Below, one piece after another: positions 13,312 to 21,843 of a stretch of DNA of 64,000 nt. Numbering within the stretch: position 1 is the stretch's first letter; each line of letters opens with the position of its first letter. This DNA comes from Acidimicrobiia bacterium (GTDB lineage Bacteria; Actinomycetota; Acidimicrobiia; Acidimicrobiales; Bin134), in contig JAJDUJ010000029.1 of assembly GCA_022826705.1 (NCBI GenBank), positions 11,026 through 75,025 of the forward strand, given 5' to 3'. The notes below the pieces were generated by a model, which was given only the letters and a program-made list of their open reading frames with translations, did not search any database and was not told the DNA's origin. Position numbers and translations under genes: made by a program.

Positions 13312-16300
13312 ATGGATGACTTCCTCGTAGACCGGGATCCCACAACTTGGTCGGCACCGGCAGGGTTTCCGTCATCACTGACGCCGGCGGGGGTGTTTGT
13401 TCAGGATGCTCCAAGCGGGTTGGAGGTGACGCTGGTTCGAGCGTCTAGTAAGCCCAGGACAGCGGAACTGCGTGATGGGTGGTCAAAGCGGCGGGCCGGG
13501 CGGGCCAGCCCGGTGCTGCTGGTGGCGTTCTATCCCACTGCTGAAGGTCAGCTGGTTTCCTTGTGCGGCCCGGTGGGGGAGCCGCCGGTGGTGCACCACG
13601 ACCTCGAAGTGTCGCAGGCCGAGCGCCTGTCTGAGGTGGCGTTGAGCGAGCCCAGCCACCATGCTGCCACCCGGTTCCTGTTGGCGGCCATGCCCGAGCT
13701 GGAGTCGCCTTTCCCCGGACTCCGCAACGTTGGCCTGTTGGCCACTCAAGAACTGAGGGCTGGCGTACCCGATCGAACAGACTGGCCAACCGCTAGCCAT
13801 AAGTCATTGGCGCTTCTTGGGCGTCGAGGCCGACGACTGGTAGAGGGCTTGGGCTTTCACATCCAGACGCTGGCCACCAATGCCTCTATGCTCACCATTG
13901 ACGGCCGCAATCATGCCGTGGCCGTGTTTTGCGACGAGGACGAGCCCTTCGAGGCGCCCTCGAACCGGTTCGACAACACCTCCCCGGTGTCGAGGGCTCT
14001 GGCTCTGGCCGACCAGCACCGGGTGGACTGGGTGATTCTCACCCGGTCGTCGGAGATCCGCCTCTACGCCGCCCGTCCCGACACCGGTGTGGGCCGCAAG
14101 GGTCGGGCCGAGACGTTCGTGGAGCTGAACCTGTCGCTCGTTCCCGATGAGTTGGCCGGCTACCTGCACCTGCTGTTCTCAGCCGATGCGCTGGCCGACA
14201 ATGGCACCCTCGATCAGATACTCGAGCACTCGGCCGATTTCGTCGCCGAACTGGCCGTTCGGCTTCGAGAGCGGGTGTACCACCAGACGGTTCCGGCACT
14301 GGCCAACGCGGTGGCCGCCCGGCGGTCTCGTGATCGACACGGAGACGACTTGGGCGAAGGCGATCAGGCCGACGCCTACGAGCAGGTGATGGTGATCTTG
14401 TTCCGGCTGCTGTTCGTGGCCTACGCCGAGGACAAAGACCTGCTGCCCTATCGCACCAACGGGCGCTACGCCGACCACTCGCTGTCACATATAGCCCGGC
14501 TGCTGGCCGATGATCGCCGCCTGGAACGTGCCGACTATGACGAGCAGGCCACTGATCTGTGGGACGACGTAAACCAGCTTTGGGATGCAGTCAACCACGG
14601 CAATGCCGACTGGGGCGTGCCCGCCTACAACGGTGGCTTGTTCTCCGCCGATCCCGAGGTGAGTCCGTCGGGAGCGGCCATCGCCCATATCAGTCTGACT
14701 AACGCCGAGTTCGGTCCTGCTCTCTCCGCGGTATTGGTGGACCAGAGCCCCGAGGGGGTGGGGCCAGTGGACTTCCGCTCGCTGTCCGTGCGGGAGTTCG
14801 GCACCATCTACGAGGGCCTCTTGGAGTCGAAGCTGTCAGTGGCCCAAGACGATCTGGCCATCAAGACCATCAAGGGCAAAGAGCAGTACGTGCCCGCGGC
14901 CGGAGACGACGAAGTGGTAGTGGAGGCAGGTGCGGTGTACTTCCACAACCGCTCTGGGGTGCGCAAGGCCACGGGCTCCTACTTCACCAAGCCGTTCGCC
15001 GTCGAACATCTGCTCGACAACGCATTGGAGCCCGCCCTCGATGACCATATCGCCCGGCTCGACGACCTGCGAGAGCGAGGCGACGACGCCGCGGTGGCCG
15101 AGGCCTTCTTCGACTTCCGCTGCGCCGACATCGCCATGGGCTCGGCCCACTTCCTGGTGGCCGCCGTCGACCGCATCGAGGCCCGCCTATCGGCCTGGCT
15201 CACCCTCCATCCCGTTGCCGCCGTGACCGCAGAACTGAACCGTCTGCGCACCACCGCCCTCGAAGCTCTGGGCGATCTGGCCGACGGGGTGCCGATCGAA
15301 TCCGGTTCCCTACTGCGCCGCCAAGTGGCCCGCCACTGCGTCTACGGCGTGGACAAGAACCGAGTAGCCGTCGAGCTCGCCCGTCTCGCCATCTGGGTCC
15401 ACACCTTCGTCCCCGGCCTCCCCCTGTCGTTCCTAGACCACAACCTGGTCCAAGGCGACAGCCTGACCGGGGTGACGTCTGTGGACGATGCCGCCGCAGC
15501 GGTTGCGCCGAAGGGGAGCAAGGACGGGGCATCGCTGTTTGTTCATCAGTTGGAGAGTCTCTTGGAAGCCTGCCAAGCGCCCCTGGCTCGACTCGGGCGG
15601 CTCAACGACGCAGACAAGGCCGAGATCGAAGCAGCCCGAACCGCCCACGCCCAGACCCGTGAGGCTGTCTTACCGGCCGAAGCCGTTTTCGATGTGGCCA
15701 CCGCAGTGCGTGCGGGGGCCATTGAAATACACAAGGACTTCGACTTCAGCCCAGAGAAGGTGGCATCCCTAGCCGAACAGTCAGCCGTGCGTGCCGCGGT
15801 GGAGCGGATGACCCCGGTCCACTATCCGACGGTGTGGCCAGAAGTGTTCGCTCGGACCGAGCGAAGCGGCTTCGACTGCCTGCTGGGCAATCCCCCTTGG
15901 GAGAAAGTAGTGGTGGACAGGGAAGTCTGGTGGGGGATGCACCTACCGGGCGTCCGGTCGCTGCCAGTGGCGAAGCGGCGAGCCCGCATCGATGCTCTAG
16001 AGGCACAGCGGCCAGACCTAGCTGAAGAGTTCGAAAGCGAAAGGGAGCGGGCCGAAGCGCTCAAACTGGTACTGCGAGCCACGTTCCCCAACCTCGGGTC
16101 AGGGCAAACCGACCTCTACAAAGCGTTCTCCTGGGCCAACCTCGCCTTGTGCCGAGAAGGAGGCAAGATCGGTATGGTGCTGCCTCGGTCCGCGGTATCT
16201 GACGCTGGCATGGCCAACTGGCGAACCGAGATCGTCGGTGCTCCTATCAATGACGCAACTAAGCGCAGGGGGGGGGTACCCAGCCCGATGCGGCTATCGG

Positions 16301-16977
16301 TGGCCACGGTCATCAACCACAAGGGCTGGGTGTTCGAGGGGGTCCACAACTCCTACACGGTGGCGCTGGTGGCGGTCACCCGGTCTTCTCCGTCGTCACC
16401 TGCCTCAACACCAAGCATTGGGCGTTCGACGGGGTCGACGGCCGCTACACCGTCGCGCTCGTCGCCGTCCGCAAGCTCAGCCCCCGAGCCGAGCCAAGGG
16501 GGTGGCTTTGAGGGCGACCCAGATGAGCCGCATGTAGCCATCTACCCCGGCCCGGCGAGTTCGCCAGCCCATTTCCACACCATGGTGGACGGGAAACCGG
16601 AACTTGTGCCGGTATCGGAGTTCACCCGGTGGTCAAACACGGCGGCCTTCCCCCAGATTCCAACACGACCCGCCTTCCGCGTCTGGCGCAAGATCAAACA
16701 GCATCCTCGCTTCGACGGCGCCGACGTATCTGATCCCGCTGACTCTCTCTCTCTCTCTCTCTCTCGGAAAGCCGCGGAACTGGCGCTTCCGACCGGTTCA
16801 GGGCGACCTCAACGCGACCAACGACCGCCACCGGTTCTGGAACGACGACGGACGTGGCGCTTCCGGGCAGTGGCCGAGTTCCACGCGACGCACGACCGGA
16901 GCAGGTTCGTGAACGACGATGGCGCTTCCGCCCAGTTCGAGAATTCGACGCGACGCACGACCGGAGCAGGTTCGTGA
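13312..16977 (+). CDS. Type IIG/Eco57I-like gamma-class N6-adenine DNA methyltransferase (current phase state, 1221 aa)
   Basis: GSYFTKP, ADIAMGSAHFL (motif I), YGVDKN, LLGNPPW (motif IV), TDLYKAF, WVFEGV (motif VIII); N-terminal WVILT...RLY region. Confidence 0.9.
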   Translation: MDDFLVDRDPTTWSAPAGFPSSLTPAGVFVQDAPSGLEVTLVRASSKPRTAELRDGWSKRRAGRASPVLLVAFYPTAEGQLVSLCGPVGEPPVVHHDLEVSQAERLSEVALSEPSHHAATRFLLAAMPELESPFPGLRNVGLLATQELRAGVPDRTDWPTASHKSLALLGRRGRRLVEGLGFHIQTLATNASMLTIDGRNHAVAVFCDEDEPFEAPSNRFDNTSPVSRALALADQHRVDWVILTRSSEIRLYAARPDTGVGRKGRAETFVELNLSLVPDELAGYLHLLFSADALADNGTLDQILEHSADFVAELAVRLRERVYHQTVPALANAVAARRSRDRHGDDLGEGDQADAYEQVMVILFRLLFVAYAEDKDLLPYRTNGRYADHSLSHIARLLADDRRLERADYDEQATDLWDDVNQLWDAVNHGNADWGVPAYNGGLFSADPEVSPSGAAIAHISLTNAEFGPALSAVLVDQSPEGVGPVDFRSLSVREFGTIYEGLLESKLSVAQDDLAIKTIKGKEQYVPAAGDDEVVVEAGAVYFHNRSGVRKATGSYFTKPFAVEHLLDNALEPALDDHIARLDDLRERGDDAAVAEAFFDFRCADIAMGSAHFLVAAVDRIEARLSAWLTLHPVAAVTAELNRLRTTALEALGDLADGVPIESGSLLRRQVARHCVYGVDKNRVAVELARLAIWVHTFVPGLPLSFLDHNLVQGDSLTGVTSVDDAAAAVAPKGSKDGASLFVHQLESLLEACQAPLARLGRLNDADKAEIEAARTAHAQTREAVLPAEAVFDVATAVRAGAIEIHKDFDFSPEKVASLAEQSAVRAAVERMTPVHYPTVWPEVFARTERSGFDCLLGNPPWEKVVVDREVWWGMHLPGVRSLPVAKRRARIDALEAQRPDLAEEFESERERAEALKLVLRATFPNLGSGQTDLYKAFSWANLALCREGGKIGMVLPRSAVSDAGMANWRTEIVGAPINDATKRRGGVPSPMRLSVATVINHKGWVFEGVHNSYTVALVAVTRSSPSSPASTPSIGRSTGSTAATPSRSSPSASSAPEPSQGGGFEGDPDEPHVAIYPGPASSPAHFHTMVDGKPELVPVSEFTRWSNTAAFPQIPTRPAFRVWRKIKQHPRFDGADVSDPADSLSLSLSRKAAELALPTGSGRPQRDQRPPPVLERRRTWRFRAVAEFHATHDRSRFVNDDGASAQFENSTRRTTGAGS
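16268..16276 (+). repeat. G9 homopolymer inside the methyltransferase gene
   Basis: AAGCGCA-GGGGGGGGG-TACC. Confidence 0.95.
16294..16469 (+). repeat. Two paralogous 28-codon modules (16294-16377 in frame; 16386-16469 in another frame), offset 92 nt
   Basis: LSVATVINHKGWVFEGVHNSYTVALVAV vs FSVVTCLNTKHWAFDGVDGRYTVALVAV; 17/28 identical. Confidence 0.9.
16497..16512 (+). promoter_or_regulatory. Candidate prfB-type +1 programmed ribosomal frameshift signal
   Basis: AGG GGG TGG CTT TGA G in the module-B frame; same geometry as E. coli prfB AGG GGG TAT CTT TGA C; a +1 shift enters the main ORF frame. Confidence 0.65.
16743..16765 (+). repeat. (CT)11C microsatellite inside the methyltransferase gene
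   Basis: GA-CTCTCTCTCTCTCTCTCTCTCTC-GGAAA, encoding SLSLSLS. Confidence 0.95.
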
Positions 16978-16995
16978 ACGACGATGGCGCTTCCG
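16781..16995 (+). repeat. Tandem diverged repeats (74, 65, 65 nt plus a partial fourth), each starting TGGCGCTTCCG
   Basis: Starts at 16781, 16855, 16920, 16985; units encode WRFRPVQGDLNATNDRHRF, WRFRAVAEFHATHDRSRF, WRFRPVREFDATHDRSRF in three different frames. Confidence 0.92.
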
Positions 16996-17011: not shown

Positions 17012-17758
17012 ATGAGTGAGGCATGGCCAGTGTACAAGGGCACGTCGTTCAACCTTTGGGAGCCCGACACCGGCATCTATTACGACAGCGCAGACGCAGA
17101 GAGCATGATCGCTCATTTGCATGAGAAGCGGCTGTCGCAGCGTCGTACCCATTCATCGGCGTTCGCCCAACAAGACCAATCGGTCACCGACGATCCAGCA
17201 ACGCTGCCTTGTCGGCATCCGCGTATCGCATTGCGAAATGTGACTAACCCCACGAATACACGCACGCTTCTTGCCGCACTGGTTCCCGGTGATCGGGTGA
17301 TTGTGCATCACGCCCCCTATCTGCTGCGTACTGCGGGTTCGGCTGCTGACGAGGCGTTTGTTCTTGGTGTTCTGTGCTCAATGCCCTGTGACTGGCAGGC
17401 CCGGCGGACTGTCGAGTTGAACCTGACGTTTGAACAGCTCAACTTACTGTCCATTCCCGATCCTGGAAGAGGGCATCCCGTTCGCGACCGAGTAGCAGAA
17501 ATCGCTGCCCTACTAGCTGCCCAAGACGACCGGTTCTCTGGATGGGCCGCTGAAGTAGGCGTGCCTGTCGGCACTGTTGACGCGGGGGGGGGGGCTTGGC
17601 TGCTAGCCGAATTAGACGCCTGTGTCGCCTATCTCTACGGCTTAGACGAGGACGACATCACGGTGGTGTACGACACATTCGGTCGTCCGGGACAGTGGGA
17701 TGAACGACGCGACGCCGTCCTCTCCTGCTTCCGCCGAATCGGGGATTCATGGACCTGA
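17012..17758 (+). CDS. Separately encoded target-recognition (specificity) subunit S1, 248 aa
   Basis: AGGAG RBS at 16999-17003; WPVYKG...PRIALRNVTNPTNTRTLLAALVP...ELDACVAYLYGL, resembling the type IIG C-terminal TRD. Confidence 0.8.
   Translation: MSEAWPVYKGTSFNLWEPDTGIYYDSADAESMIAHLHEKRLSQRRTHSSAFAQQDQSVTDDPATLPCRHPRIALRNVTNPTNTRTLLAALVPGDRVIVHHAPYLLRTAGSAADEAFVLGVLCSMPCDWQARRTVELNLTFEQLNLLSIPDPGRGHPVRDRVAEIAALLAAQDDRFSGWAAEVGVPVGTVDAGGGAWLLAELDACVAYLYGLDEDDITVVYDTFGRPGQWDERRDAVLSCFRRIGDSWT
17584..17594 (+). repeat. G11 homopolymer inside S1
   Basis: GAC GCG GGG GGG GGG GCT TGG. Confidence 0.95.
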
Positions 17759-18521
17759 AGATGCCGCGTCTGAGTTCAACGAGATTTGGCCGGTCTACAA
17801 GGGCACCTCGTTCAATCTCTGGGAGCCGGACACAGGTGTCTACTACGACAGCGCGGATGCTCAGACCATGATTACTCATCTTCAGGAGAAGCGACTGTCG
17901 CAACGCCGCACCCGGACGTCTGCATTTGCTGAGCAGGACGAATCAGTTGCTGATGACCCTGCAACGCTGCCCTGCTTGAATCCCAGGATCGCATTTAGGG
18001 ATGTTGCCCGATCGACAGATACACGAACGCTCATAGCTGCTCTTATTCCCGGTGTCCGGGTAATTGTGCATCAGGCGCCCTACTTGCTTCGCACTCTTGG
18101 TGCAGGCAGGGATGAGGCGTACTTGCTCGGTGTCCTGAGTTCAATGCCTTGCGACTGGCAGTCCCGGCGCACTGTCGAACTGCACATGACCTTTGAGCAG
18201 TTTGGTCTGTTGTCCATTCCCGACCCCGGAGAGGGTCATCCTGTCAGGGACCGAGTCGTGGAAATCGCCGGCCGCCTGGCTGCGGTGGACGAGCGGTTCG
18301 CGGAATGGGCGGCAGAGGTGGGGGTGCCGGTGGGGTCGGCCAATGACGAGACGGCCAAACAAGACCTCATCTGTGAGCTCGACGCCTGCGTCGCCCACCT
18401 CTACGGCCTCGACGAAGACGACTTGGCCGTGGTCTACGAAACCTTCAGCGAAACCGTTGACTACTCCGACCGCCACGCCGCCGTCCGCACCCATTTCAGG
18501 AAGCTGCATGACTGCGGTTGA
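17700..18521 (+). CDS. Second specificity subunit S2 (paralogue of S1), 273 aa; start uncertain
   Basis: WPVYKG...PRIAFRDVARSTDTRTLIAALIP...ELDACVAHLYGL; colinear with S1 at a 763-nt offset. Confidence 0.78.
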   Translation: MNDATPSSPASAESGIHGPEDAASEFNEIWPVYKGTSFNLWEPDTGVYYDSADAQTMITHLQEKRLSQRRTRTSAFAEQDESVADDPATLPCLNPRIAFRDVARSTDTRTLIAALIPGVRVIVHQAPYLLRTLGAGRDEAYLLGVLSSMPCDWQSRRTVELHMTFEQFGLLSIPDPGEGHPVRDRVVEIAGRLAAVDERFAEWAAEVGVPVGSANDETAKQDLICELDACVAHLYGLDEDDLAVVYETFSETVDYSDRHAAVRTHFRKLHDCG

Positions 18522-21500
18522 GAAGCCCGAGTTGGCCGTTAACCGGGGCCAGGACACGGTGGCGGGAGCGCTGAACGGGTTCATTTCCCATGCCGCAACC
18601 GGGTTTGTGGGCGGGGCCTGTTTGGATGTGGCCACTGCCTATTTCAACGTGGGCGGCTACTCGCTGCTGGCCGATTCGCTGGATCAGGTCACTGGCGTGC
18701 GGCTGTTGCTGGGAGCGGAGCCGACCCCTCCGGAGAGCCGCCGGCGGGCGCTGCGGACTGAATCGGCCAATCCCCAGCGGGCGATCCGGGCTCGGCTGCG
18801 CCAGGCGCTTGAGGGCCACGAGCAGAACCTTGTGGTTGAGCGAGACCACTTGGGGTTCACGTTTGAGGTTGATGCCTCCACTCGCCGGCTGGTGAAGTGG
18901 CTGCGCTCGGAGAATGTTAAAGTGCGCCGTCTGGAGGGGCGGTTCTTGCACGGCAAGGCGTTCTTGGTGGGGAACCGCTCCCATGGGGTGGTGGCCGGTT
19001 CGTCCAATTTCACCTATGCGGGGTTGGCCACCAACTTGGAGCTGAACCTGGGCAACTACTCGCCCCATGTGGTGGGTCAGGTGCGCGACTGGTTCGAGGA
19101 ACTGTGGGCCGAGGCCGCGGAATACGACTTGGCCTCGCTGTTCGAGGCCCGATTCGAGCCTCACTCCCCTCAGCTCGTGTATCTGCGAATGCTGTGGGAG
19201 TTCTACGGCGAGGAACTCGAGGCCGAGGCCGCCGCCGAAGGCGCGCCGCAGATTCACCTCACCAATTTCCAATCAGACGGGCTGTGGCGGGCCCGGCGCA
19301 TCTTGGACGAGCGCAACGGGGTCCTCATTGCTGACGAGGTCGGCCTGGGGAAGACGTTCTTGGCCGGAGAGTTGATCCGGGAGGCGGTGCAGGATCGTCG
19401 TCAACGGGTGTTGGTGATCACCCCTGCCACGCTGCGCGACGGGCCGTGGCGGGCATTCGTTCATGAGCACTTGTTGGCGGTGGAGCTCGTGTCGTACGAG
19501 GAGCTGATGGCCGACAGCCGCCTAAACCCCGAGCACACAACTGCCATCAAGCTGAAAGCTGCCATCAACGAATACGCCATGGTGGTGATCGACGAGGCCC
19601 ACAACCTACGCAATCCTGGCACCCAGCGGGCTCACGCGCTGCGCCAGCTGTTGGCAGGATCGCCTCCCAAGGAGCTGGTGATGCTCACCGCTACTCCGGT
19701 GAATAACAGCCTGTGGGACTTGTATCACCTGCTGGGCTACTTCTTACGCAGCGATGCTGTGTTTGCCGATGCTGGCATTCGCTCTCTGCGCGACCACTTC
19801 GCCAAAGCGATGGCTCTCAACCCCGACGACCTCACCCCCGAGCATTTGTTCGACGTGCTGGACGCGGTGGCGGTCCGCCGAACCAGGTCGTTTGTCAAGC
19901 GCTTCTACCCCAATGACACCATCAAGGTCGGCGGGCAAGAACGGCAGATCGTCTTCCCCACTCCCCGGGTCCACAAGGTGGACTACAACCTCGACGAGGT
20001 GATGCCCGGTTTCTTCGACCGGTTTGCCGATGCGCTCGATCCCGACGCCAGCGTCGAAGATCCCGGCGTGCTCACGATGGCTCGGTATTCGCCATCGCAG
20101 TTTCGTTTAGACCATGAGGAAGATGCTTACGAGAAACAGCTTGCCGGGCTGTTGCGATCTGGATTGCTGAAGCGTTTCGAGTCTTCGCCCTATGCCTTTG
20201 CCGAGACCTGTGAGCGAATGGCCAAGAGCCATGACACCTTTCTGTCGCTGCTCGACAACGGCCGGGTAGCCACTGGCGACGCTTTGGCTGACTGGATCGC
20301 CACCGACTCCGACGAGATGGACGAAGATCAGGTCGACACCTTCCTGGGCGGAATCGTCGGGGTGTCCGATGACGCGGCCGAGTACGACCTCGAACATCTC
20401 CGAGAATACGTGGACCGAGATCGAGACCTGCTGAGGTCGTTCGTTGCCGAGGCCCGCACCGTCACCCGCGCAGATGATCCCAACCTGAACGCCTTGGTTG
20501 AAGAGCTGGCCCAGATCTCCGCCGATGCCGCTGCTGAAGGTATCGGCCCCGACGACGTGCGCGATCGGGGCAAGGTATTGATCTTCAGCTATTACGCCGA
20601 CACCGTCGCCTGGGTTTTTGAGCATCTGGTTTCCACTGTTGAAGCCGATGAGCGCCTGGCTCCCTATCGAGGTCGCATCGCCTCGCTAGCGGGCAACTCC
20701 GGCTCGGGGAGCAAGGAGCGAGTGCTGTGGGGGTTCGCCCCCAAGACCACCGATGCCCCCGAGGGCGCCGATGAAGACCTGTTCGACATCGTGGTGGCCA
20801 CCGACGTGCTGGCCGAGGGGGTTAACCTCCAGCAGGCCCGTCACATCATCAACTACGACCTGCCCTGGAACCCGATGCGGCTGGTACAGCGCCATGGCCG
20901 CATAGATCGCATCGGCTCGCTCCACACCGAGGTGTTCCTGCGCTGCGTGTTCCCCGACGATCGCCTCGACGACCTGCTCGGTCTCGAAGAGCGACTGCAC
21001 CTGAAGATCGCCCAGGCTGCCGCCAGCATCGGCGTTGGCGAGGTGCTGCCCGACCAAGTTACCCAAGTCGAGACCAACTTCACTGAGACCAAAGAGGAAA
21101 TCGACCGTCTTCGCAACGAAGACGCTGAGTTGTTCGAACGAGGCGGCACCGCCCGAGGCGTACTGTCGGGCGAGGAGTTCCGCCAAGAACTGCGCCAAGC
21201 CCTTGAAGACTCCGACCTGGCCCGCCAAATCAAGTCCCTCCCCTGGGGCTCAGGCTCAGGCATGGCCGTGGCAAGCCCCGATGGCCACCCCGGCTACATC
21301 TTCTGCGCCCGAGTAGGCGACCACCCCAAACCCCTATTCCGCTTTATCGAAACCGGCTCCGATGCGGACAGTTCCGTGGTAGACGAAACCTTGGCCTGCC
21401 TCCACAAAGCCCGCCCCCCAGATGGTTTCGGCACCGACCGCCAATTGGACGACGCCACCATCCAAGCCGCCTTCACCGCCTGGGAGACCGCCCGCGCTCA

Positions 21501-21843
21501 CATCGTGGAGCGGTGGAACTTCATGTCCGACAAAGCCAACCTAGAACCCAAAATCCCACCCCGCCTCCGCCGTGCCGCCGACATCCTCCGAGAGCACTCA
21601 CCCCCCGACCTCACCCAAGAAGACCTTGACCGCGCTATAGACACCATCAACGCCCCCTACCCCGAACGCACCATCCGCACCCTCCAAGCCGCTATCAGCA
21701 ACATCGAAGACCCTGCCCAGCAAGCCCAAAATATCCTCAACACCATCCACCACCTAGGCCTACAGCCCTACACACCCCCCACCCCCCTCCCCGAAATCCA
21801 CAAAACCGACGTCCACCTAGTTACCTGGCTAGCACTGACCTGA
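18508..21843 (+). CDS. PLD-nuclease domain fused to SNF2-family helicase, 1111 aa
   Basis: ATAYFN, LHGKAF...GSSNFT...NLELN (PLD); ADEVGLGKT, IDEAHN, LTATP, EGVNLQ...NYDLPWNP...QRHGRIDRIG; AGGAAG RBS before ATG 18508. Confidence 0.9.
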   Translation: MTAVEKPELAVNRGQDTVAGALNGFISHAATGFVGGACLDVATAYFNVGGYSLLADSLDQVTGVRLLLGAEPTPPESRRRALRTESANPQRAIRARLRQALEGHEQNLVVERDHLGFTFEVDASTRRLVKWLRSENVKVRRLEGRFLHGKAFLVGNRSHGVVAGSSNFTYAGLATNLELNLGNYSPHVVGQVRDWFEELWAEAAEYDLASLFEARFEPHSPQLVYLRMLWEFYGEELEAEAAAEGAPQIHLTNFQSDGLWRARRILDERNGVLIADEVGLGKTFLAGELIREAVQDRRQRVLVITPATLRDGPWRAFVHEHLLAVELVSYEELMADSRLNPEHTTAIKLKAAINEYAMVVIDEAHNLRNPGTQRAHALRQLLAGSPPKELVMLTATPVNNSLWDLYHLLGYFLRSDAVFADAGIRSLRDHFAKAMALNPDDLTPEHLFDVLDAVAVRRTRSFVKRFYPNDTIKVGGQERQIVFPTPRVHKVDYNLDEVMPGFFDRFADALDPDASVEDPGVLTMARYSPSQFRLDHEEDAYEKQLAGLLRSGLLKRFESSPYAFAETCERMAKSHDTFLSLLDNGRVATGDALADWIATDSDEMDEDQVDTFLGGIVGVSDDAAEYDLEHLREYVDRDRDLLRSFVAEARTVTRADDPNLNALVEELAQISADAAAEGIGPDDVRDRGKVLIFSYYADTVAWVFEHLVSTVEADERLAPYRGRIASLAGNSGSGSKERVLWGFAPKTTDAPEGADEDLFDIVVATDVLAEGVNLQQARHIINYDLPWNPMRLVQRHGRIDRIGSLHTEVFLRCVFPDDRLDDLLGLEERLHLKIAQAAASIGVGEVLPDQVTQVETNFTETKEEIDRLRNEDAELFERGGTARGVLSGEEFRQELRQALEDSDLARQIKSLPWGSGSGMAVASPDGHPGYIFCARVGDHPKPLFRFIETGSDADSSVVDETLACLHKARPPDGFGTDRQLDDATIQAAFTAWETARAHIVERWNFMSDKANLEPKIPPRLRRAADILREHSPPDLTQEDLDRAIDTINAPYPERTIRTLQAAISNIEDPAQQAQNILNTIHHLGLQPYTPPTPLPEIHKTDVHLVTWLALT

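Follow-up and report, generated by a model that had tools for sequence, protein, structure and literature searches.

Methylases whose reading frame is switched by simple sequence repeats (SSRs) include the type III mod phasevarions, the type IIG enzyme cj0031 of Campylobacter and Streptomyces coelicolor pglX with its G tract. In type I hsdS shufflons and other recombinase-driven switches, alternative segments are stored side by side and chosen stochastically. A change of frame made by the ribosome itself is known from prfB, the gene for release factor 2 (RF2), where the consensus signal consists of AGGGGG, CTTT 3 nt downstream, and then TGA (PMC12421855). The locus described here lies in a 64,000-nucleotide stretch (the window) of contig JAJDUJ010000029.1 from an Acidimicrobiia bacterium: a gene for a type IIG-like N6-adenine methyltransferase carries a tract of nine G residues and, downstream of it, the sequence AGG GGG TGG CTT TGA G. 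On comparative grounds, this sequence is probably a working RF2-type +1 programmed frameshift site, likely of low efficiency, in a phase-variable gene. It would function like the prfB signal and yet outside the prfB autoregulatory system, as the host gene is not prfB and the prfB of the same genome is a single open reading frame (ORF).

The resemblance to the prfB site is close. Both contain a Shine-Dalgarno (SD)-like GGGGG (AGGGGG in the window), exactly 3 nt, CTT and the RF2-specific stop TGA, and both are linear signals with no conserved RNA structure; the CUU-to-UUU slip by tRNA-Leu(GAG), which operates in prfB, is proposed here. The differences lie in the setting: the host is a methylase gene, so there is no RF2 feedback loop; the stop is followed mostly by G instead of C; ~1066 codons of the ORF precede the site, as against ~25 in prfB; the site would be required in one of three DNA phase states only; and it belongs to a phylum whose prfB lost the signal. 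With SSR phase-variable methyltransferases the locus shares an intragenic homopolymer or microsatellite whose length switches the methylase reading frame, but theirs is an ON/OFF switch, whereas in this gene a catalytic segment is present a second time in the off frame, followed by a candidate recoding signal back to the main frame. Like the hsdS shufflons, the locus keeps alternative segments side by side for a stochastic choice; in contrast to their recombination between inverted repeats, there is no recombinase here and the alternatives lie in different frames. No precedent for a prfB-like cassette in a methylase, or for alternative cassettes stored in different frames, was found in the literature, coverage of which was incomplete.

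A prfB-like junction within a methylase gene

Between the G9 tract (SSR1) and a second tract, (CT)11 (SSR2), the gene consists of three segments, designated module A, module B and post (Table 1). Modules A and post are read in the main frame, that of the 13312..16977 ORF (frame mod 1), and module B in frame mod 0, which is -1 relative to it. The frame of B ends at 16497-16512 with the codons AGG (16497-16499), GGG (16500-16502), TGG, CTT and TGA, followed by G at 16512. In the main frame the same nucleotides are read GGG GGT GGC TTT GAG GGC GAC ..., i.e., GGGFEGDPDEPH, and the peptide at the site is Gly-Gly-Gly-Phe (GGGF). A ribosome slipping by +1 at CTT_T would continue in the main frame from GAG 16510. 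In the window this +1 frame stays open for 155 codons and encodes the conserved post segment. When SSR1 was modelled as G10 and one base was skipped at 16509, a stop-free product of 1221 aa was obtained, with the junction ...AEPRGWL-EGDPDEPHV. Predicted junction peptides of this B state are GWLEGDPDEPHVAIYPGP... and GWLEGDPDEPHVAIYPGPASSPAHFHTMVDGKPELVPVSEFTR, and the counterpart from the A state contains ...EPSQGGGFEGDPDEPH.... The geometry, with its SD-like GGGGG, 3-nt spacer, CTT and TGA, is identical to the prfB consensus. All of this agrees with a sequence-only reading of the window, which had described the end of the module-B frame, its likeness to the RF2 signal, the landing of a +1 slip in the main frame with restoration of a 1221-aa protein, and G rather than C after UGA.

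The pattern GG[GA]GGNNNCTTTGA occurs seven times on both strands of the 3.45-Mb genome, vs. ~3.9 occurrences expected from base composition, and of the seven, only in the copy in the window does a long ORF upstream connect with a long ORF in the +1 frame. Chance does not explain the match at the junction. Reinitiation after the TGA was excluded as a way into the main frame: no main-frame ATG, GTG or TTG is found within ~40 nt, and a nearby TTG and GTG lie in the third frame, which closes nine codons later. When 20 diverse junctions were folded with RNAalifold in search of a stimulatory RNA structure, the energy obtained was -2.1 kcal/mol and no covariation was seen.

Conservation of the junction and the change of frame

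For comparison, 50 usable homologous loci were collected from sponge-symbiont Acidimicrobiia of several genera, down to ~45-50% protein identity; a non-redundant subset of 39 was used for per-site counts and stop counts. Close relatives of the source metagenome-assembled genome (MAG) are the sponge-associated Candidatus Poriferisocius, Poriferisodalis, Aldehydirespiratoraceae and the 'Sva0996' group. The layout is common to the 47 loci with regular matches to A, B and post: A and post share one frame, and B lies at -1. Exceptions are L057, which is irregular, and L063, in which post is found in the third frame. Codon-position entropies (positions 1/2/3) are 0.33/0.20/0.83 for A in the main frame, 0.40/0.28/1.03 for B in the B frame, and 0.49/0.39/1.46 for post in the main frame, so that each segment, B together with its tail included, varies most at position 3 of its own frame. 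Since the entropy of B peaks at position 3 of the B frame, module B is translated and under purifying selection in that frame. The motif is thus the exact point at which the frame under selection changes. From the start of A up to the junction, stops are found in none of the 39 loci in the main frame, in 2 in the B frame and in 16 in the third frame.

The two modules resemble each other. After G9, the main-frame translation of module A reads ...SVATVINHKGWVFEGVHNSYTVALVAVTR, and 92 nt further on, the -1 frame reads ...SVVTCLNTKHWAFDGVDGRYTVALVAVRK LSPRAEPRGWL followed by the stop. Unbroken methylase paralogues exist in the same genus (L068-L070, in genomes G015, G021 and G010) as single ORFs of 1334-1340 aa without SSRs. 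Their domain order, NPPW, GxxGxVLP, one motif VII/VIII module, post, C module and target recognition domain (TRD), is the same as that of the locus in the window, but the lone module (...RRIDFLINRRLWMFDTHPQYGVALTVAERR) is followed almost directly by the post segment (...APDDAHRVAL...), GGGF and the TGA junction are both lacking, and the C module runs straight into the TRD. Because these paralogues hold only one such module, A and B are regarded as duplicates of the methylase motif VII/VIII strands, and because their single module comes without GGGF, the Gly-Gly-Gly-Phe peptide is not an ancestral functional motif. In the current state, off-frame B is read as a Ser/Pro-rich linker. AlphaFold, given an alignment of 75 rows, produced a poor model (mean pLDDT 56), from which only two points were taken: module A contains two beta strands (506-512, 528-535), and off-frame B (residues 538-579) is disordered.

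These data bear on the simplest alternative, a decaying pseudogene with tandem out-of-frame duplications and a coincidental motif, which is barely credible. A broken frame is indeed seen in many assemblies (21 of 50 are OFF), and module A of L057 has suffered a 1-nt deletion. However, the layout is kept over ~50 loci of several genera at the divergence given above, both frames show codon-position periodicity, none of the SSR units is a multiple of 3, and the motif is present only seven times genome-wide. By its layout, conservation and entropy data, the locus essentially refutes the pseudogene explanation.

Conservation at the junction itself is at the nucleotide level. The 14-mer GG[GA]GGTGGCTTTGA is found exactly in 39 of the 50 loci, and in six further loci a G-rich stretch (G4 in L060) is followed by the TGG spacer, CCT (five loci) or CCC (one locus), and TGA; the TGA is located at the same nucleotide in 47 of the 50. 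The purine-rich stretch, AGGGGG at 16497-16502 in the window, is represented by GGGGG or GGAGG in 38 of the 39 loci, the interrupted form GGAGG being that of L030, L032 and L049, and the length of the spacer is invariant in all motif-bearing loci. The slippery codon is CTT in the window and in 33/39 loci, CCT or CCC in 4/39 (6/50) and CAT in one. Deviating junctions are GGCGG TGT CTT TGA in L045 and CAT TGA in L052. The mean conservation of the 14-mer, 0.965, is the second highest within 430 nt, and its flanks are poorly conserved. Furthermore, the main-frame wobble sites T16503, C16506 and T16509 are fixed in nearly all loci (Table 1); wobble sites a few codons away vary freely. The codons held in this way are rare ones in genomic usage, TTT accounting for 13% of Phe, GGT for 11% of Gly and CTT for 6% of Leu codons. 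The motif is therefore conserved against codon bias. The variants observed are compatible with ribosomal slippage: GGAGG would pair better with the anti-SD sequence, and CCC_T and CCT_T are shift-prone sequences.

In an extreme case, the motif is replaced altogether: L050 (=L012) has G17 and L063 has C12 at the same spot, a third frame-shifting tract at the junction of B and post. Because these two place their tracts exactly there, a connection from the B frame to the post frame appears to be needed at this junction. In L059 and L065, the motif is followed by an insertion of ~130 nt in which the cassette occurs once more (GGGGGTGGCCCTGA ... GGGGGTGGCCTTGA in L059 and GGGGGTGGCCTTGA ... GGGGGCGGCCTTGA in L065).

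The long homopolymers of L050 and L063 also raise another possibility, namely that the connection is made at the DNA or RNA level in all loci, with the G5 run at 16498-16502 acting as a minor polymerase slippage tract that occasionally loses a base and has no ribosomal role. This is quite improbable. A run of five is too short for frequent slippage, judging from what is generally known of SSR mutability; the run is interrupted as GGAGG in three loci and as GGCGG in L045; its length is unchanged in the motif-carrying B-state genomes and in four sponge metagenome assemblies; and the conservation of TGG CTT TGA downstream of it would be unexplained. The G5 run was rejected as a DNA slippage tract on the interrupted variants and the constant length.

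Natural alleles with module B in frame are informative here. In 13 of 15 such loci, the frame stops on the TGA of the motif and the +1 frame is open for 121-197 codons beyond it. In 12 of these (L029-L033, L037, L038, L040, L045, L056, L061 and L064), the upstream ORF is 723-1136 codons long and the +1 frame is open for 129-197 codons; the remaining one, L057, has an ORF of only 111. No compensating indel in the G5 run occurs in the motif-ending B-in-frame loci, and none of the four sponge metagenome assemblies shows a length change at 16498-16502, though SSR1 varies there. For example, the junction is identical in L016 and L029, although SSR1 is G14 (A state) in the former and G13 (B state) in the latter. 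The sequence-only reading had looked to natural alleles for an indel in this run, or to homologues for loss of the signal, as observations that would speak against it, and neither was seen; its pairing of a DNA slip with a ribosomal slip is supported by strong comparative evidence. At ~4690-4700 of L057, a 1-nt deletion in the GAGGGGG run of module A splits this module over two frames, which may represent a small slippage site or an assembly error; as the deletion puts the assembly in the third frame, L057 was dropped as a natural 'B-only' test.

Repeat tracts and a candidate three-state switch

The tracts that would set the frame are themselves variable. Sponge metagenome assemblies, consisting of contigs only, in which within-sample heterogeneity is not visible, carry G9 (X1) and G11 (X2) at SSR1 of the same strain, and an allele 4 nt shorter in a near-identical variant with five single-nucleotide polymorphisms (X3 and X4). 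Among the 50 loci, an SSR is found at the SSR1 position in 48, with units of 1, 2, 4, 5, 7 or 10 nt (no tract was found in L037 and L060), and at the SSR2 position in 49, with units of 1, 2, 4, 5 or 8 nt; a unit that is a multiple of 3 (3, 6 or 9) is never seen at either. The type of repeat has turned over many times among the species (L016-L067): poly-G, poly-C, GA, CT and CA are found, as are 4-mers, 5-mers, a 7-mer, an 8-mer and 10-mers. This turnover of repeat types, with units that are never 3, 6 or 9 nt, strongly indicates that selection acts on frame-switching as such. The gene thus has both features that characterize an SSR phase-variable methylase, a repeat inside the gene whose unit is not divisible by 3 and differences in its length between near-identical strains.

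In the most likely model, drawn from these comparisons, the locus would be a three-state switch. A change in the length of SSR1 by DNA slippage, here from G9, would place the ribosome in one of three frames. In frame 1, the current one (G(3n)), module A would be read, B would be read off-frame as a ~42-aa Ser/Pro-rich linker, and translation would continue to give the A isoform. In frame 2 (G(3n+1), such as G10 and G13), A would be read off-frame as a Gly-rich linker and B would then be read properly, supplying a paralogous copy of the motif VII/VIII strands of A. On reaching CTT TGA, the ribosome would hold tRNA-Leu(GAG) on CUU in the P site with UGA awaiting RF2; the GGGGG located 3 nt upstream would pair with the anti-SD sequence of 16S rRNA, the tRNA would re-pair on UUU, and translation would resume at GAG in the main frame to yield ...PRGWL-EGDPDEPH..., the B isoform. 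Ribosomes that terminate instead would release a truncated product of ~1066 aa. In frame 3 (G(3n+2)), no module would be in frame and translation would end at a conserved TAG 25 nt further on, which corresponds to the OFF state. The B isoform may be functionally distinct from the A isoform.

The machinery for such a shift is at hand in these organisms. The 3′ end of 16S rRNA is GGATCACCTCCTT, with the anti-SD CCUCC, in nine genomes of the same genus (the 16S gene of the MAG itself is not assembled), and tRNA-Leu(GAG), which reads CUU, is present in the genome together with tRNA-Pro(GGG). Shifting by the ribosome is itself deduced from comparative data: RNA sequencing runs were searched for the stretch and none contain it, and no RNA or proteome data were found.

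Several observations weigh against a programmed shift, or at least against an efficient one. The stop is followed by G in the window, and among the 39 loci by G in 24, C in 10, A in 2 and T in 1, whereas in prfB it is followed by C; TGAC is a weak terminator. TGA is the commonest stop in the genome (55%), so RF2 is probably abundant. The site is dual-coded, because Gly-Gly-Gly-Phe in the main frame forces GGnGGnGG by itself. In L022 the stop and both T's are lost while GGGF is kept with the preferred codons GGC and TTC. Furthermore, a TAG lies 25 nt past the junction as the first third-frame stop after it in most loci. It is made by the Val codon GTA (16534-16537 in the window), which represents 6% of Val codons genome-wide and yet is kept in 31/39 loci, indicating that off-frame terminators themselves are selected here. 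Among the loci, the states are 13 A : 15 B : 21 off, so that B-state genomes show no excess over chance, and these counts come from MAG assemblies, in which homopolymer lengths may be erroneous. As to the phylum, Prince et al. detected the prfB frameshift motif in 0 of 2,658 Actinomycetota surveyed, and a reporter with the prfB motif shifted at 6.6 +/- 4.4% in M. smegmatis vs. 52.7% in B. subtilis (PMC12421855). Indeed, the prfB of the source genome (G000:C6:300268-301320, L014) is a single ORF directly downstream of secA with no internal stop and no SD-CTT-TGA cassette, and it was unusable as a positive control, being without a frameshift.

Much of this would be expected if the TGA were merely a conserved terminator and the B state yielded a truncated protein, which would be a short isoform with a function of its own or an OFF product aborted at little cost. 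Such a product would comprise the N-terminal domain and a methylase core completed by B, without post, C and TRD, and the likeness to prfB would be a by-product of main-frame Gly-Gly-Gly-Phe-Glu codons overlapping a selected off-frame stop. GGN GGN GGN TTY GAR automatically yields a G-rich stretch ahead of a stop, a second off-frame stop is likewise retained through a rare codon, L022 keeps GGGF in the absence of the stop, and the mostly G base after the stop and the poor performance of the cassette in an actinomycete fit as well. However, this explanation leaves the protein-level purifying selection on B, a copy of motif VII/VIII, without a cause, and a methylase core that lacks a TRD has no evident use, the unbroken paralogues being single chains of 1334-1340 aa. 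Nor does it give a reason for the fixed C16506 (CTT rather than NTT) and T16503, for P-site variants that are solely CCT, CCC and one CAT, for a long frame-shifting homopolymer at the exact spot in two lineages, or for the location of the stop at the very nucleotide where the frame of selection changes. A plain terminator is, on this balance, an unlikely account, though the main competitor of the programmed shift.

A programmed +1 shift therefore remains the preferred reading, with its efficiency probably low to moderate. Low efficiency is likely because of the 6.6% obtained with the actinomycete reporter, the G after the stop, and TGA as the main stop of the genome; the B state would then be a low-dose or RF2-sensitive one. 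An even chance is given to the wider view of the locus as a recombinase-free, frame-encoded cassette switch, in which hypermutable repeats would choose the frame, copies of segments would be stored one per frame (A and B after SSR1, C1-C3 after SSR2), the RF2-type site would rejoin B to the main frame, and the states would be the A isoform, a low-dose, RF2-sensitive B isoform with truncated product, and OFF.

Surroundings of the junction and wider meaning

The source MAG is 3.45 Mb in size with 64.6% G+C. The host ORF matches Pfam Eco57I (PF07669) and the PADLOC profile REase_MTase_IIG (PDLC03620, E=8e-205); of the 1378 profile positions, its protein (P0002) covers 56-1029, and the remainder is in part matched by two TRD-like domains, CT1 and CT2, located in other frames or ORFs (Table 1). 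A phmmer search against Protein Data Bank (PDB) sequences found nothing, and Foldseek gave no significant match, the best being BrxX, M.TaqI and CamA, all with E>0.1.

Table 1. Features of the methylase locus in the window, in order of position.
Feature	Positions	Strand	Basis or remarks
Host ORF, current state G9 + (CT)11	13312..16977	+	1221-aa type IIG-like N6-adenine methyltransferase; ORF list, Pfam, PADLOC
SSR1, G9 tract, sets downstream reading frame	16268..16276	+	Repeat reading and length variation
Module A (MRLSVATVINHKGWVFEGVHNSYTVALVAVTR), methylase motif VII/VIII region	16288..16383	+	Main frame
Module B and tail (VFSVVTCLNTKHWAFDGVDGRYTVALVAVRKLSPRAEPRGWL)	16383..16508	+	-1 frame
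Internal Shine-Dalgarno-like GGGGG	16498..16502	+	GGGGG in 35/39 loci, GGAGG in 3
3-nt spacer, E-site codon TGG	16503..16505	+	T16503 in 37/39 loci
Slippery P-site codon CTT (CTT_T)	16506..16508	+	C16506 in 38/39 loci
TGA, stop of the B frame, putative pause site	16509..16511	+	Same position in 47/50 loci; T16509 in 37/39
'Post' segment (EGDPDEPHVAIYPGP...HPRFDG)	16510..16742	+	Main frame, putatively entered by +1 shift
TAG closing the third (OFF) frame	16535..16537	+	Made by rare Val codon GTA; A16536 in 31/39 loci
SSR2, (CT)11	16743..16764	+	Repeat reading
Three C modules (WRFRPV..AT.DR.RF.NDDG), one per reading frame	16778..16988	+	Kept in order in most loci
Two tandem TRD-like C-terminal domains, CT1 (G11 at 17584-17594) and CT2	17012..18521	+	PDLC03620 positions 1132-1371
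PLD(HKD)-SNF2 helicase partner	18505..21843	+	Pfam PLDc_2, SNF2-rel_dom, Helicase_C; PADLOC HKD+Snf2 / DrmD-like

Downstream of (CT)11, the C module is present as three diverged copies that recur every 65-74 nt. Within each frame, the copy belonging to it is followed by a TGA, located in the GTGAAC of the next copy, and the stop in the frame of the third copy overlaps the start of CT1 (ATGA). CT1 and CT2, which are ~69% identical to each other, probably represent alternative specificity domains, and the number of such domains in some relatives is one, two or three. The HKD-SNF2 protein encoded downstream may carry out restriction in place of the methylase. In the unbroken paralogues (L068-L070), the methylase gene is followed by a large ORF.

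If the reading given here is true, the prfB cassette would for the first time be seen in use outside prfB, and DNA slippage would for the first time be paired with programmed ribosomal slippage to exchange an internal catalytic segment. A working site would mean that the SD-CUU-UGA +1 cassette, regarded as essentially private to prfB, is portable, and that it has been reused in the Actinomycetota, which lost it from prfB and in which it is thought to be poorly functional. It would also mean that a repeat tract can do more than turn a gene ON or OFF, selecting between two paralogous catalytic segments kept in different frames, with two of the three tract lengths productive and one of these possibly a dose-graded or RF2-sensing state. 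Annotation would change as well, because genes of this kind are called frameshifted pseudogenes in MAGs. The methylase family occurs widely among sponge symbionts, and the defence repertoires of these symbionts are ecologically interesting.

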